Shown: positions 40,888 to 64,000 of the stretch, piece by piece
How positions within the stretch are numbered: the stretch's first letter is position 1
How the letters are laid out: each line of letters opens with the position of its first letter
From: Escherichia coli
GTDB taxonomy: Bacteria > Pseudomonadota > Gammaproteobacteria > Enterobacterales > Enterobacteriaceae
Assembly (NCBI RefSeq): GCF_001677475.2
Contig: NZ_CP015229.1
Direction: 5' to 3' (one strand)
DNA: 64,000 bases
The notes under the pieces: generated by a model
Told to the model about the DNA's origin: nothing
Seen by the model: the letters and a program-made list of their open reading frames with translations, nothing else
The model's database searches: none
Position numbers and translations under genes: made by a program

Positions 40888-40906
40888 ATACTCTGTCTGA
40901 TTATAA

Positions 40907-41425
40907 TCAGAAGGCAGACGTATCCTGGAACAGACCGACTTTCAGGTCGCTGGCGGTATAGATCAGACGACCATCAACCAACACTTCGCCATCTGCCAGA
41001 CCCATAATCAGACGACGATTAACAATGCGTTTAAAGTGAATACGGTAGGTCACTTTTTTCGCTGTCGGCAGTACCTGACCAGTGAATTTCACTTCGCCAA
41101 CGCCCAGCGCGCGGCCTTTACCTTCGCCGCCCAGCCAGCCGAGGTAGAACCCTACCAGCTGCCACATTGCATCCAGGCCCAGGCATCCCGGCATAACCGG
41201 ATCGCCAATGAAGTGGCATCCGAAGAACCACAGATCCGGATTGATATCCAGTTCTGCTTCAACATACCCTTTGTCGAAGTTACCACCCGTTTCGGTCATT
41301 TTGACCACACGGTCCATCATCAGCATGTTCGGTGCTGGCAATTGCGGGCCTTTAGCGCCAAACAGTTCACCGCGACCAGAGGCAAGAAGGTCTTCTTTTG
41401 TATAGGATTCGCGTTTATCTACCAT
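40907..41425 (-). CDS. fabA: 3-hydroxydecanoyl-ACP dehydratase/isomerase
   Basis: ATG at 41425 ([23 protein letters not shown]), 172 aa; active-site region [11 protein letters not shown]. Confidence 0.9.
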
Positions 41426-45928: not shown

Positions 45929-46104
45929 CATCCAGTGACGACAAAGATCAACCCTATTTTCGGAAAGAGCCTCGCAAATTTTGTCGTTGGTGACGGGAAA
46001 ACATAAATTAATCTTGCCCCTTAAGAATAAGTTGCCTATTTTCGTAGTTAACGGATCCGTTAATGTGAATCATTCTTTTACGTTATGATTTTAAAAGGAA
46101 TTTT

Positions 46105-55309: not shown

Positions 55310-55635
55310 ATACATTTTACCGGTTTAGGCAGGCCAGCAATTTTGGTGGCTTGCTTTGCCGGACCTTTCGGAAACAGTCGGTATAAATAGCGGCTGTTAC
55401 CTTTTTCTTCGCCAAATTTATTCGCCATCGCTTTTACCAGCATACGAATCGCCGGAGAAGTATTGAATTCCAGATAGAAATCACGCACAAAACGCACCAC
55501 TTCCCAGTGTTCTGGCGACAGCGAAATCCCTTCGTTCTCTGCAATCACCACTGCCAGCGGCTCACTCCACTGGCTGCTTTCTTTGAGATAGCCTTCGGTA
55601 TCCGTTTCTATCTCTTTACCTTCGAAGATCAGCAT
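55306..55635 (-). CDS. tusE: Sulfur relay protein TusE (DsrC-like)
   Basis: ATG at 55635 ([18 protein letters not shown]), 109 aa; C-terminal PKPVKCI. Confidence 0.85.
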
Positions 55636-55725
55636 AATTATTACTACCTTAATCAGACTGGCGGCAGTGTAACAAAAAACAAAGCCCCGCATAAAGCGAG
55701 GCTCGGTAAGTAACCCTGGGCGAGA

Positions 55726-56385
55726 TTAATCGCGGCTGGCGAAGCCCAGAATGCTCAGCAGGCTGACGAAGATGTTGTACAGCGAAACATACAGGCTAAC
55801 CGTGGCACGAATATAGTTCGTTTCACCGCCATGAATGATGTTGCTGGTTTCAAACAAAATAGCGCCAGAGGAGATCAGAATGAAGACCGCGCTGATCGCC
55901 AGATGCAGAGCAGGCAGTTGCAGGAAGATATTCGCAACCATACCAATCAGCACCACCACAATACCCGCCATCAGCATACCGCCGAGGAACGACATATCTT
56001 TGCGGGTGGTCAGCACATATGCAGAGCAGCAGAAGAACACTAACGCCGTTCCGCCCAGTGCCATCGCGATTACGTCACCCATTCCGGCAGACAGATAGGT
56101 ATTCAGAATTGGTCCGAGGATATAACCCAGAAAACCGGTAAAGGCGAATGCGGAGATAATCCCGGTCGGCTTATTCGCCGTTTTATAGGTCAGGAACATC
56201 AAACCATACATACCCACCAGCGTCAGAATCAGACCCGGAGATGGCAGCATCAGCACCGTACTGGCAGTTGCGGTAATCGCCGAAAAGGCCAGCGTCAGGC
56301 TCAGCAGAAAATAGGTATTACGCAGCACCTTATGGGTGCTAAGCAGTGATGTACGGTCATGTGAAGAACTAACAATACGATCCAT
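55726..56385 (-). CDS. yccA: BAX-inhibitor-1 family membrane protein YccA (FtsH modulator)
   Basis: 219 aa, seven hydrophobic segments. Confidence 0.85.
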
Positions 56386-56548
56386 TGAGTCACTCTCTAT
56401 GACAGATGTAATTAATTAAGCAGCATAATGATAATGCGTAAGGGCACCCAGAAGTTTTACCCATCTTTACGCATTTGATCTGGAACAGGTTTAACAGCGG
56501 ATTATCAGGTCATTAAGCAAATATAACGCCCTGAGAATTTCGACAGGC

Positions 56549-56580
56549 AAAAGAAAAAGGGGTTAGCATTTAGCTAACCC
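56549..56580 (-). terminator. Rho-independent terminator of serT, retained next to the displaced tRNA fragment
   Basis: ggggttagc-attta-gctaacccc hairpin followed by T-rich run on minus strand directly 3' of the tRNA CCA end. Confidence 0.75.
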
Positions 56581-56591
56581 CTTATCTTATT

Positions 56592-56651
56592 TGGCGGAAG
56601 CGCAGAGATTCGAACTCTGGAACCCTTTCGGGTCGCCGGTTTTCAAGACCG
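56592..56651 (-). tRNA. serT: Truncated tRNA-Ser(UGA): 3'-terminal 60 nt only (anticodon loop to CCA); attL copy at prophage junction
   Basis: Minus strand reads CGGTCTTGAAAACCGGCGACCCGAAAGGGTTCCAGAGTTCGAATCTCTGCGCTTCCGCCA; the 5' 28 nt of the recalled serT sequence are replaced by AT-rich prophage DNA. Confidence 0.8.
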
Positions 56652-56792
56652 AAGAAAAATAAAGAAAAATCAGTATAATACGCAAAATAGCCGAAAAGTT
56701 AATCAGACTTAACACCAAGAAAAATCAAGATGTTAGGGAGTTATTCAGAGTTAATATACCAGGTCTTTTTGCCAGAAAATTTTCTGGATTGT

Positions 56793-57812
56793 CTACTTAC
56801 TGACCACAAGCGGCAAATCCAGTGTTGGCGTGATTTTGGTTTTACGATCGTAAATCAACACCTGATTTTCTGTTTTGTGTCCACTGAAAATTTGTTTGTC
56901 GCGACTGCTGCCTTCGTAATCTGAAATCCCTTTGGCTTTTATGTCATGGAAGTTGCACCCAAACGGAACGCCGGCTTTTTGCTCGGCTGCACGTTTAGCC
57001 TGATTCCACCAGTTGTTCAGCGTCTTGGCTATTACCTTCCCGCCTTTGGTTGTGTTGATCACATACTCGCATGTGCCGGAAGATACATTTCGGGCTAACT
57101 GGATCGCCGTACGTAATCGCGGAGACCATTCCTTGATTTGTTTAGTGCCAGTCTTGTTTTGCTCAATGTAAATCCCTTTATCCATAATATCCTGCCATTT
57201 CAGCTCGAGTACATCACCGAGCCTTGCCGCACAAAGATAGGATATCTCCATTGCAATACGTAACTGTGGAATTGCTTCCGCATATATTGCTGCATACTGT
57301 TCATCGGTGATGTAAACAGTACGGGCTTTAAGTGTGAATTTTCTGACACCTTTGCATGGATTATTTTTCACATACCCACGCTCATATCCCCATCCGTATA
57401 CACGGCTCAGACTTGCCAGTTCATGGTTTGCCTGGGTCTTGCTCTCAAGTCCTCGCTTATCCATGAAAATTCTTACCTGTTCAATTTTTACATTATCAGC
57501 AAGCACTTTTCCGAATACTGCCAACAATGCCCTTTGATGTTGCCGATAATCTTTTTGGGTTCGGGGGGCCAGTTCTGTAAATGCAGGGGAGTCCATAAAC
57601 ATGTGCCATAATTTAGCTACTGTCATTATGTTGTGGAGTTTTGCTTTTTCCAGCTCATAATTTTGCCAGACTTTAGCTACGCTGGTTTCCCGCACTCTTC
57701 CGAGCCCTATAGTTCTTGTGCTTCCTTCGGGTTTCCATACGTAACTGTAACCGTTCGATCTAACACGCGGTGGTAGTGCATTATCTTTTTTGTTTTTTCT
57801 TGGTCTTCCCAT
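56793..57812 (-). CDS. int: Tyrosine-type site-specific integrase (lambda Int family)
   Basis: 339 aa; C-terminal catalytic region GHKTENQVLIYDRK resembles lambda Int LLGHKSDTMASQY; 3' end faces the att site. Confidence 0.9.
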   Translation of the reverse strand: MGRPRKNKKDNALPPRVRSNGYSYVWKPEGSTRTIGLGRVRETSVAKVWQNYELEKAKLHNIMTVAKLWHMFMDSPAFTELAPRTQKDYRQHQRALLAVFGKVLADNVKIEQVRIFMDKRGLESKTQANHELASLSRVYGWGYERGYVKNNPCKGVRKFTLKARTVYITDEQYAAIYAEAIPQLRIAMEISYLCAARLGDVLELKWQDIMDKGIYIEQNKTGTKQIKEWSPRLRTAIQLARNVSSGTCEYVINTTKGGKVIAKTLNNWWNQAKRAAEQKAGVPFGCNFHDIKAKGISDYEGSSRDKQIFSGHKTENQVLIYDRKTKITPTLDLPLVVSK

Positions 57813-58032
57813 TGTTCAGCGCCTCAAAATCGGGTTCAGCGGAAACCAGCTCAGGTGCTTTTGGCATCGTTGTCAGTCCGTGTGGAATATCCCTGCGAAG
57901 AACTATTGGTTCGTTTTTAGGACCGATTACAAATGGGATGCCGTGCAGCCTTAACTGGTGTTGCTGTTTTGTGTATCGCTCGTATTTCGTGATCTCTTGA
58001 ATCTCTGCTGGCGATAGAGTTAATTCGTACAT
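57781..58032 (-). CDS. xis: Excisionase-like protein (lambda Xis-like)
   Basis: 83 aa, N-terminus MYELTL and basic C-terminal tail KTKKKQKR resemble lambda Xis; overlaps int start by 32 nt. Confidence 0.6.
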   Translation of the reverse strand: MYELTLSPAEIQEITKYERYTKQQHQLRLHGIPFVIGPKNEPIVLRRDIPHGLTTMPKAPELVSAEPDFEALNNGKTKKKQKR

Positions 58033-58098
58033 GTGGTCACGTGCCTTACAGCATGACCGCCGCCAATATAATTCGGAGACGGCGATCAGGGGTGAACA

Positions 58099-60549
58099 TT
58101 AAAAATCAACCGGATTCGGGATCAGTTTTTGCCAGATTGCTGAAACGTATTTTGCCTGGTAACGAGCGTCATCAAGTGCATTATGGCGCTCACCTTCGAA
58201 TGGGATAGCTGTTCTGGCATCGAAGTCTATGGCTTTCCCCAGCTCAACGATTGTGCGTACATCGCGATCGTTGCAGTAGCGCCAAGGGCAGGGGATACCC
58301 TGTCGTTCGTATGAACGGCGTAAAATCACGTTGTCGAAGTTGGCCCCATTACCCCAGACCTGAACAAAAAATTCACCGGAGTTTTCGTCGATAAATTCCC
58401 GCAATTGCAGCAGTGCATCATCTAACGGGATTTCATCGGTCAGAATGGCAGATTGCGCCTCGCGTGATTGCTTAAGCCACCATTTTATGGTGTCACGATT
58501 AATGACTCCGCCAGCAGTTTCCAGATCGATGGTCTTACTAAATTCCGGCCCCATATCTCCGGTTTGCGGATCGAAAAATATTGCACCTATTGAGATAATC
58601 GGGGCATCGGGATTTTTTCCCATGGTTTCAAGGTCGATCATAAGATGGTCACATGACCTGCTTGTGGATGTGATATTGTGATAACCGTTCACCTTAATTA
58701 AGGGATCTGTTGCTTCGCCAGTTTCATTATCGCTGGCGTGATGCTGATTGCCTCCAGTGTTCTCCTTGTGTGGATGTTCAGCGCCTTCCATTTCCTCCGG
58801 ATCATTCTCCTGAGCTTCAACCTGATTCTCTTCATCGAATGTTTCCTGGTATGTTGCGTTTCCCATGACCGCGCCACAGTCAGGACAGTTGCCGCCGCTG
58901 CTCTGACCGCAGACGGTGCAGACTTTTTCCGGTTCCTGTTGCACTACTGGTTCGGATTGTTTCGTTTCTGGTTCGTTTTGTTGCGCATTTGGGCTGTTTT
59001 GTTCCGCTTTCTGGTCGTTCTGTGCCGTTTCTTGCTGGTTCTGGTTCACAGAATCGCGGGTTTCAATCCCCTTCACCCATTTCGGATCATTCGGGTCGCT
59101 AATCCCTGCAACAAATTCACCACGTGATGCAGCGAGCAACTGACTGGCGTCAGGCAGGCTGATATTGGCTGCCTGCATAATTTTGTTTACTTCGTCAGCG
59201 GTAACTTTTACCTGATTAACCGGATCTATCTGTGCCTGAGTATCCAGCGATTGCGTGTCCTGGCGAAGTTCAGTTGTATCCGGCTCCATTGCTTCAGTCG
59301 TTGCCTGTTCATCTGCCATTGCGTCAGACGGTTGTGATTTTTCATCATTATTTTTTTCTTCTTCTGTTTCGCGTTTAGCAGCCAGTTCGCGGTTAACTTC
59401 TTCCTGGATATCTTTTTCCGGTGTATGTCGTGCAGCAGCGAGAGTTTCTTCGGTAGGGTTCTCGTGATCAGTCTCCGTTAAGTGGGCGTTGATATACTCC
59501 TGAAGGCGTCCCGGGTAGAGATAAAGTTCAGGGTGAGCACTTCGGATAAGTGCAAAAATAGCGGCACGGGAATAATCCAGAATACCAGGGGTTGCGCGAA
59601 GTGCTGCGGACCATTCTTTGAACGGACTTTCTTTCTTCCGGACGACTTCTTTTGCGCGACGATAAACGCTGCCCGGAATTTCATAAATATTAAAATCCAT
59701 CGGAAGTGTGGCCGCTGCAATCTCCACATCCAGCGTATCGAAGGTGTGTACTAAATTCGGATTGCGATCGGTTTTGTTCCCGCCGCCAGCATTAGCACCG
59801 GAAGCCGTGCGGATGATGCGTGAAACACGATTCCCCTTCATCCACTCTTTTGTAAGCAGACCGCGATCGGTGTAGTCAGCGCCCAGGTATGCTTCGAAAA
59901 AAGCAGTCATCAGTCCCAGGTCTGAATTGCCAGGATTAGGGAAAACTTTGTCAGTGTCACGAACCAGTTTGTGGAGATCGCGAATTTCCAGCGGTTCGAG
60001 TTGCGCTGCTTTATTTGAGATGGCCAGCGCGGTAACGGCGGGAAGTTTTTCATCCTGTGCGTTATGTAATGCGCGCAGTTCGCCCCGCGAAACGTGAGTG
60101 ATCGGTTTTTCGCTGCCGTGCTGAGCAAGCCAGCGAATGGGAAGTATCTGGCCAGAAACCGGGAGTAGCATATTCTCCTCAATATCAGTCATGTCTTCGC
60201 CGTTGACGTTGGTATTGTCAGTGCTGGCTGGTTTATCCTGAACAGAGGGCGCGATAAATACCATTGTGATACCATCTTCCCCGCCTTTTTCGTATCGGTT
60301 GCAGAATTCGGTATCAAACACACCTTCCGGAGGCAGGTCATTCACAACGGGTAAATGGACGCGGACGGGTTTTTTAAAGTCGTCTTCATCATAATCGTTG
60401 TCATCCATTGCGGTAATACAACGGGAGATGGCAACAGATAATTTTTTTGCTGTGGTCCAGTAAAAACCACCTTTAATTCCCAGGCGTTTTCTGACTTTGT
60501 CATTTTTTGCTTCGCAATATAGCGCAAATTCTTCTTTTTCAGTGCTCAT
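58099..60549 (-). CDS. Large prophage protein: unknown N-terminal domain, acidic/Gln-rich low-complexity linker, CxxC-x9-CxxC zinc ribbon, C-terminal DnaQ-like (DEDDh) 3'-5' exonuclease domain
   Basis: 816 aa; exonuclease motifs IDLETMG (Exo I), WGNGANFDNVIL (Exo II), HNALDDARY (Exo III) in last ~185 aa (about 58102-58656); SD GAGG 7 nt upstream of ATG. Confidence 0.75.
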   Translation of the reverse strand: MSTEKEEFALYCEAKNDKVRKRLGIKGGFYWTTAKKLSVAISRCITAMDDNDYDEDDFKKPVRVHLPVVNDLPPEGVFDTEFCNRYEKGGEDGITMVFIAPSVQDKPASTDNTNVNGEDMTDIEENMLLPVSGQILPIRWLAQHGSEKPITHVSRGELRALHNAQDEKLPAVTALAISNKAAQLEPLEIRDLHKLVRDTDKVFPNPGNSDLGLMTAFFEAYLGADYTDRGLLTKEWMKGNRVSRIIRTASGANAGGGNKTDRNPNLVHTFDTLDVEIAAATLPMDFNIYEIPGSVYRRAKEVVRKKESPFKEWSAALRATPGILDYSRAAIFALIRSAHPELYLYPGRLQEYINAHLTETDHENPTEETLAAARHTPEKDIQEEVNRELAAKRETEEEKNNDEKSQPSDAMADEQATTEAMEPDTTELRQDTQSLDTQAQIDPVNQVKVTADEVNKIMQAANISLPDASQLLAASRGEFVAGISDPNDPKWVKGIETRDSVNQNQQETAQNDQKAEQNSPNAQQNEPETKQSEPVVQQEPEKVCTVCGQSSGGNCPDCGAVMGNATYQETFDEENQVEAQENDPEEMEGAEHPHKENTGGNQHHASDNETGEATDPLIKVNGYHNITSTSRSCDHLMIDLETMGKNPDAPIISIGAIFFDPQTGDMGPEFSKTIDLETAGGVINRDTIKWWLKQSREAQSAILTDEIPLDDALLQLREFIDENSGEFFVQVWGNGANFDNVILRRSYERQGIPCPWRYCNDRDVRTIVELGKAIDFDARTAIPFEGERHNALDDARYQAKYVSAIWQKLIPNPVDF

Positions 60550-63631: not shown

Positions 63632-64000
63632 CTAGGTAACTTTTTGTTGTGCTGCTAGCCACCTTGCAACTATACGATCCATTGTCTCTTTTTTTTCCTT
63701 CATATCTTTAAGTATTTGCTGTTGATCTTCCTCTGGAAATGCCTCAAATGTTTGAAGTAGCTCCTTTTGCTTAGGAGATATTTTTAATATATCCTGTGTT
63801 TTGTCTTCTTTTTCTTCATTTAATGGTAAGAAAAACCAATGTTGGGGAAAACCCGTTACTTCAGATAGTTTATCTAGATTAGCTGCTGTAGGGCTTGATA
63901 TACCACAAACCCACCTTTGGACGGATTGTTGAGCAATACCAATTCTGCGCGCAAGCTCTGCTTGACTCCAGCCTTTTTCTAATAGAAGCATCTTAATTCT
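63632..64000 (-). CDS. HTH XRE-family transcriptional regulator (PaaR-like), 5' end beyond window
   Basis: Helix-turn-helix signature GWSQAELARRIGIAQQSVQRW; frame open to window edge; 35 bp upstream of the antitoxin gene. Confidence 0.75.
   Translation of the reverse strand, partial: RIKMLLLEKGWSQAELARRIGIAQQSVQRWVCGISSPTAANLDKLSEVTGFPQHWFFLPLNEEKEDKTQDILKISPKQKELLQTFEAFPEEDQQQILKDMKEKKETMDRIVARWLAAQQKVT

Follow-up and report, generated by a model that had tools for sequence, protein, structure and literature searches.

We analyzed the junction at positions 56557-58032 of a 64,000-nucleotide stretch of the Escherichia coli contig NZ_CP015229.1 (the whole stretch is hereafter called the window), where a piece of the tRNA-Ser(UGA) gene serT is followed by AT-rich DNA and by phage-type integrase (int) and excisionase (xis) genes. 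The flanking chromosomal gene yccA, encoding a modulator of FtsH, is located at 55726-56385 on the minus strand (NCBIfam equivalog NF007765, 455.8 bits vs. a cut-off of 353). Between yccA and int, and on the same strand, lie the native intrinsic terminator of serT (56557-56583), which is identical to that of K-12 and has an 11-bp stem, a 5-nt loop, and a T run (-21.6 kcal/mol, z = -5.0), and the displaced 3' 60 nt of serT (56592-56651), which read CGGTCTTGAAAACCGGCGACCCGAAAGGGTTCCAGAGTTCGAATCTCTGCGCTTCCGCCA on the minus strand, beginning with the second anticodon-stem base and ending with CCA. The fragment is 100% identical to positions 29-88 of K-12 serT (60 of 60 nt, without any mutation), the spacing between yccA and the serT 3' end is the same as in K-12, and the match to the K-12 chromosome, which is 98.3% from 55467 onward, ends exactly at 56651. 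ARAGORN called tRNA-Ser(tga) at the equivalent position of K-12 and no tRNA anywhere in the window, and thus only a fragment of the gene is present. An Rfam scan of 55500-58500 (E ≤ 1) gave no match to the tRNA fragment and only two sub-threshold chance matches, one of them on the terminator hairpin. The initial annotation had recognized both the truncation of serT to its 3' 60 nt and the retention of its terminator, and the comparison with K-12 bears out both observations, with no full-length serT adjacent to the fragment. The serT remnant is a non-functional tRNA piece between yccA and int.

To the right of 56651 the DNA changes in character. A 141-bp arm (56652-56792), collinear with the attachment site of the temperate coliphage Evi, has a G+C content of 29.8%, compared to 51.5% in the chromosomal part of the window. 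It is followed by int (56793-57812, minus strand; supported by phmmer, PHROG, and Pfam), which encodes a 339-aa heterobivalent tyrosine integrase of the lambda family and whose stop codon faces the serT fragment. The protein, Int, was aligned by phmmer with lambda Int (PDB 1z1b_A) over query residues 1-318 (E = 4.9e-18) and matches PHROG integrase families, although its match to the Pfam family Phage_integrase (PF00589) is weak (E = 3.6e-08). Residues 1-60 align at the sequence level with the lambda Int N-terminus (MGR...LPP...NGY...GLGR), and Int is predicted to possess an N-terminal arm-binding domain besides the core-binding and catalytic domains. An identical Int is encoded at 17 IMG/VR loci. 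The xis gene (57781-58032, minus strand) overlaps the start of int by 32 nt and encodes an excisionase (recombination directionality factor) of 83 aa, which matches the excisionase family phrog_1266 (E = 6.5e-23) and whose relatives in RefSeq carry the annotation DUF4224. The first early-left gene after xis encodes a RecE-like exonuclease VIII (58099-60549, minus strand), which matches PHROG exonuclease families and, with a score under the equivalog cut-off, NCBIfam NF007259 (E = 6.6e-263). All open reading frames beyond the exonuclease, up to 63991, match PHROG families, and the last of them (63632-63991) encodes a repressor-like helix-turn-helix protein. The presence of int, xis, the exonuclease, and these phage-family genes identifies the DNA right of 56651 as the early-left arm of a lambdoid prophage, of which 7.3 kb with a normal early-left gene order is in view. 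No stx or other cargo gene is visible in this 7.3-kb part. These results agree with the initial description of AT-rich foreign DNA after the fragment, of a lambda-type integrase with its 3' end toward the fragment, and of xis beside it.

The origin of the junction was assessed by comparing four forms of the attachment (att) site, namely the bacterial site attB of K-12 (L002), the phage site attP of Evi (LR597642; L003), attL of the window and of the related E. coli genome NZ_CP182374 (L001), and attR of NZ_CP182374. Exact-match extension showed that attB and attP, as well as attL and attR, are identical over positions -5 to +60 (counted from the tRNA 3' end), which corresponds to a 65-bp block of 60 nt of tRNA and 5 nt of downstream sequence at 56587-56651 (minus strand) in the window. 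The left side of attL is that of attB and its right side is that of attP, and attR has the reverse arrangement. The exact fit of the four forms is the textbook outcome of one reciprocal crossover inside the 65-bp block.

Evi is 96.3% identical to 56592-58032 of the window and carries its attP uninterrupted (L003 2880-3210), in the order of distal arm, hairpin with a T run, 60-nt serT segment, AT-rich arm with a 16-bp palindrome, and int. Its distal arm contains three repeats, TATACCAAT, TATACCAAG, and TATACCAAG, with starts 12 and 11 bp apart, and its phage-borne terminator hairpin (L003 2966-2994) folds at -20.7 kcal/mol (z = -4.1). This terminator, of the sequence type AAGGGGTTACCAAATGGTAGCCCCTT, resembles the native serT terminator, with paired changes in the stem (GGGGTTAGC...GCTAACCCC vs. 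GGGGCTACC...GGTAACCCC, plus strand). A hybrid phage terminator was observed in L044, where the identity with the chromosome reaches further.

In NZ_CP182374, the order yccA-fragment-int-xis at attL is identical to that in the window, and the prophage spans approximately 47 kb between the junctions. At its attR, ARAGORN confirmed an intact 88-nt tRNA-Ser(tga) (L001 48329-48416) beside hyaA; this far end has the Evi-type distal arm and hairpin, and the terminator 3' of the rebuilt tRNA gene (L001 48297-48323) is of the phage type. The rebuilt serT was thus seen in a relative, and the window of the present genome ends inside the prophage. Taken together, the partial copy of the tRNA gene is the 3' end of the intact gene in its native context, with the terminator and yccA in register, and a free phage, Evi, carries the identical tRNA segment and the arm. 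We conclude that 56557-58032 is, with high confidence, the integrase-side junction (attL) of a lambdoid prophage that was inserted in serT by Int-mediated recombination. The initial proposal of an attL formed by a phage carrying a copy of the tRNA 3' end is thereby substantiated by the comparison of attB, attP, attL, and attR.

In the integration route that emerges, the phage attP carries the last 60 nt of serT and 5 nt of downstream sequence, flanked on one side by the phage terminator hairpin and three tandem TATACCAAG repeats and on the other side by the 141-bp AT-rich arm ending at the int stop codon. A crossover inside the 65-bp block splits the chromosomal serT and duplicates the block, so that the 5' part of the gene, joined to the phage-borne 3' part and the phage terminator, forms a full-length serT beside hyaA, as seen in relatives, and the native 3' 60 nt with their terminator stay as a remnant between yccA and int. 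The heterobivalent Int would contact the serT block at core sites and use TATACCAAG-type repeats as arm sites, and excision would require Xis in addition to Int, probably with the help of host proteins that bend DNA. No gene for tRNA-Ser(UGA) other than serT is known in E. coli, which would explain why the phage must restore it. The crossover is probably located in the anticodon loop, with the flanking stem providing the usual dyad, since the identity block starts one base inside the anticodon stem, which is the usual pattern for a crossover in that loop.

An attempt to place the crossover from polymorphisms in three relatives (L008, L083, and L020) was abandoned, because phage-derived differences were inseparable from later mutations. 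The displaced fragment has the substitution CGGACTT in L008 (around 2665) and GACTCGAAA in L020 (around 2685), where a change affects the variable arm, and L083 (around 1930-1990) contains the variants CGATCTTG and CAAGATCG; its fragment is inverted with respect to a partial int homologue. Point substitutions of this kind are as expected for an unselected copy or for polymorphic phage copies.

The same junction was found in 745 of 5426 complete E. coli genomes (~14%; matches covering at least 80% of 56300-58100 of the window). With a 14-kb query, none of the complete E. coli genomes was identical, and the best joined matches reached 92-96% identity over 83-86% of the query, owing to prophage mosaicism. 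Prophage Sp4 of O157:H7 as well as Stx2k, Stx2e, and Stx2a phages have been described to occupy the yccA locus (PMC9431244, PMC8065619), and serT has been named as a prophage site (PMC10132054, PMC8767318, PMC10673567), including tandem prophages serT_1-3 (PMC10132054). A literature search on Sp4 of Sakai in connection with serT found nothing relevant. The junction is a correct reading of an already known, ordinary arrangement and carries little weight beyond annotation, as the left prophage boundary at a listed E. coli site that is also used by Shiga-toxin phages. For annotation, it delimits the prophage, with the phage arm starting at 56652 and the shared block at 56587-56651, and predicts the location of the intact serT. 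The att anatomy, with its 65-bp block, replacement terminator, and TATACCAAG repeats, could help to type phages that use the serT site.

Several observations weigh against the assignment of the junction as an ordinary attL. Among the complete E. coli genomes searched, the junction is matched at no more than 99.5% identity. The far junction of the present genome lies beyond the window, so that neither an intact serT nor a complete prophage is in view. Int carries a lysine where the second catalytic arginine is expected. Finally, the Stx2k prophage of strain STEC711 (L084 and L085; NZ_CP041416, 2815000-2863000) starts at the yccA-int-xis junction, and its far end borders on a partial ompW and yciE rather than on hyaA. 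The partner site can therefore lie elsewhere than at the other end of a given prophage, and the prophages at serT and ompW have apparently undergone an inversion or an exchange. For the STEC711 genome, one match only to the junction query was reported.

The STEC711 arrangement also favors an alternative in which the junction is genuine and the prophage attached to it is rearranged or defective. Such a prophage would have lost the intact-serT partner site from its far end by inversion between homologous prophages, within a tandem array, or by internal deletion, and would not excise cleanly. The tandem serT prophages mentioned above are in line with such a history, as are the attP-like junctions found inside longer contigs in L022 and L073 and the contigs of the L070 type and 13 complete genomes, in which the serT core is interrupted after CGGTCT and fused to a DUF1737 gene. 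However, int and xis are intact in the window, the identical Int recurs in IMG/VR, the 60-nt fragment is free of mutations, the visible prophage genes keep their normal order, and a second junction match is in the record for 24 of 25 genomes among the matches listed. On this evidence, we regard a rearranged prophage as rather unlikely, and an intact, excisable prophage would be the likely state of this locus. Far less plausible is a tRNA fragment unrelated to integration, that is, a decayed pseudogene or the result of a deletion of the 5' part of serT. The bare presence of only a fragment would suit such an origin and nothing else favors it, whereas the break falls exactly where the identity between Evi attP and K-12 attB stops, Evi attP is collinear with the arm that follows, and the reciprocal junction is present in NZ_CP182374. 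The four-way att comparison refutes this origin, which we consider hardly credible. The junction is hence best read as attL, as concluded above.

The L070-type junction (L070 2660-2792), in which the cut falls inside the anticodon loop, is a rearranged att remnant. The complete E. coli genomes with this cut, eight of which were listed, include O103 str. RM8385, and the DUF1737 prophage gene to which the core is joined occurs in up to 14 copies per genome.

The prophage in the window has its chromosomal site in common with the other yccA/serT prophages, namely Sp4 and the Stx2k, Stx2e, and Stx2a phages. The STEC711 Stx2k prophage carries its int-xis-exonuclease module beside yccA as well, with 99.4% identity over 56300-58100. 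In contrast to the Stx prophages, the cargo of the present prophage is not in view, as only 7.3 kb lies in the window. The coliphage Evi has the 60-nt serT segment and the palindrome in common with the window. The two 141-bp arms differ by five substitutions, which include a change in the arm repeat (TATACCAAG in Evi, TATACCAGG in the window), and int of Evi is annotated as shorter (888 bp).

The system resembles that of lambda in the almost full-length alignment of Int, in the location of xis just upstream of int and overlapping it, in the placement of int next to attP, and in the 2 + 3 arrangement of arm repeats with an IHF-like site between the proximal copies. In contrast to lambda, which uses a 15-bp core in an intergenic site, the present prophage has a tRNA gene as its target and an identity block of 65 bp. 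Furthermore, the three tandem repeats are in the arm away from int here and on the int side in lambda, Int has a lysine in place of Arg311, and its Pfam Phage_integrase match is weak. Integration into a tRNA gene with a duplicated 3' end is known for P4 at leuX and P22 at thrW. As in these systems, the 3' part of the tRNA gene from the anticodon stem to CCA is carried by the phage, the gene is rebuilt, and the displaced fragment is left as a direct repeat; sites of this kind reportedly form the anticodon-loop class in the 2002 classification of K. P. Williams. The differences are that int is located here beside the displaced fragment, not beside the rebuilt tRNA gene, and that the phage brings its own terminator for the rebuilt gene.

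Catalytic residues R197, K220, H289, H312, and Y321 are present in Int, and Lys292 (codon 56937-56939, minus strand) occupies the position of lambda R311 and Cre R292, as seen in the local alignment of FHDIKAKG in Int with FHELRSLS in lambda. An alignment of 118 sequences was made from Int and 117 full-length proteins representing clusters at 50% identity. The column of K292 contains lysine in 90 and arginine in 26 of the sequences, and the remaining catalytic columns are nearly invariant. The second arginine of tyrosine recombinases was reported to be as conserved as the catalytic tyrosine, with few natural lysine substitutions, and Cre R292K is active but impaired in ligation, so that the covalent intermediate accumulates (Gibb et al., 2010; PMC2943603). 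The abundance of correct attL and attR products indicates that the lysine-bearing integrase works. It is an evenly balanced judgment that the serT-phage Int and most of its closest family function naturally with lysine for the second catalytic arginine. If so, the active site in this clade would have to be arranged in a way that compensates for the lysine, or the balance between cleavage and ligation would have to be shifted. The lysine variant is the sole point at this locus that a recombinase specialist might want to pursue.

The phage arm was further compared among relatives from IMG/VR. Approximately 15 of 80 relatives gave arm sequence, as most contigs stop at the int stop codon. Two relatives with 76-78% identity (L077 and L079) have no serT segment downstream and seem to use other integration sites; they were therefore left out of the footprinting comparison. 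Across nine related arms, the mean column identity was 90%. Motif enrichment and the arm alignment point to a candidate Int arm-type site, TATACCAGG (TATACCAAG in most relatives), at 56755-56763 on the plus strand, in which eight of nine positions are invariant across the nine arms and the eighth position is A or G; on the minus strand the repeat reads CTTGGTATA and is almost invariant in the relatives. Matches to TATACCAAG with at most one mismatch occur six times in 7.4 kb of Evi (L003), compared to 1.05 expected, and five of the six fall in attP, where three tandem direct copies are distal, one inverted copy overlaps the first two, and one or two copies are proximal. A weaker candidate arm-type site, AACACCAAG (56711-56719, plus strand), belongs to the repeat family D6 (TTAACACCAAGA vs. 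TTTATACCAAGA) and is largely conserved in the arm alignment. If counted, this weaker copy would give a 2 + 3 layout reminiscent of lambda P1, P2 and P'1-P'3. The TATACCAAG-type repeats are better candidates for Int arm sites than the palindrome next to int, and their binding by Int is inferred.

The consensus WATCAANNNNTTR of the integration host factor IHF is matched by AATCAAGATGTTA at 56723-56735 (plus strand), between the two proximal candidate arm sites. In Evi, the consensus is found at the counterpart of this position and once in the distal arm, compared to 0.34 matches expected in 7.4 kb. The exact consensus is lost in three relatives (L022, L046, and L051), with TGATTTTTCT invariant, and 56723-56735 is a weak candidate for an IHF site. 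The proximal arm also contains a 19-nt direct repeat, AAGAAAAATCAGTATAATA / AAGAAAAATCAAGATGTTA, at 56662-56680 and 56717-56735 with a 55-bp spacing. The TGATTTTTCT core (minus strand) of the copy at 56717-56735 is invariant in nine relatives, and the copy at 56662-56680 keeps only TGATTTT. These repeats are possible Xis or IHF sites.

The 16-bp perfect palindrome CCAGAAAATTTTCTGG at 56772-56787 lies 5 nt beyond the int stop codon, just past int as initially noted. The accompanying suggestion that it serves as an Int or IHF arm site or as a transcript-end structure is not supported. Read as RNA, the palindrome can pair into a hairpin of 6 bp (-6.2 kcal/mol, z = -1.5), and 18 of 200 shuffled sequences fold equally well. 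Neither orientation is followed by a U tract, and the hairpin is not among the calls of the terminator scan; an intrinsic terminator was thus rejected for its weak fold and missing U tract. It was likewise rejected as an IHF site, with WATCAANNNNTTR absent there and the Evi matches lying elsewhere in the arms, and as a conserved dyad, with 6 of 16 positions varying over the nine arms and each variant breaking one side only. The variants are TCAGAAAATTTTCTGG in L036, CCAGAAAAATTTCTGG in L073, TCAGGAAATTTTCTGG in L046 and L051, and TCAGAAAATCTTTTCG in L022.

A functional element of the integration module, either a site for a dimeric protein such as Int, IHF, Fis, or a regulator, or an end or stabilizer of the int transcript, would suit the position of the palindrome next to the int stop and only 8 nt from the outermost TATACCAGG repeat, as well as its perfect form in the window, Evi, L008, L040, L044, and L052. 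In simulations at the size of the prophage part alone, a 16-bp palindrome occurred in just 11%. However, the window as a whole contains three perfect 16-bp palindromes, compared to 1.28 ± 1.0 expected from first-order Markov simulations of the window, the hairpin is weak, and the sequence contains no match to the IHF consensus or to the arm repeat. The relatives carry one to four symmetry-breaking substitutions, none of them compensated, and the stretch is conserved no better than the rest of the arm. A functional role is thus improbable, and the palindrome is most likely incidental. The other two palindromes, taken as a control for chance occurrence, TCTGATTATAATCAGA at 40896-40911 and TAACGGATCCGTTA at 46048-46063, the latter extending to GTTAACGGATCCGTTAAC, are located in the chromosomal part of the window.

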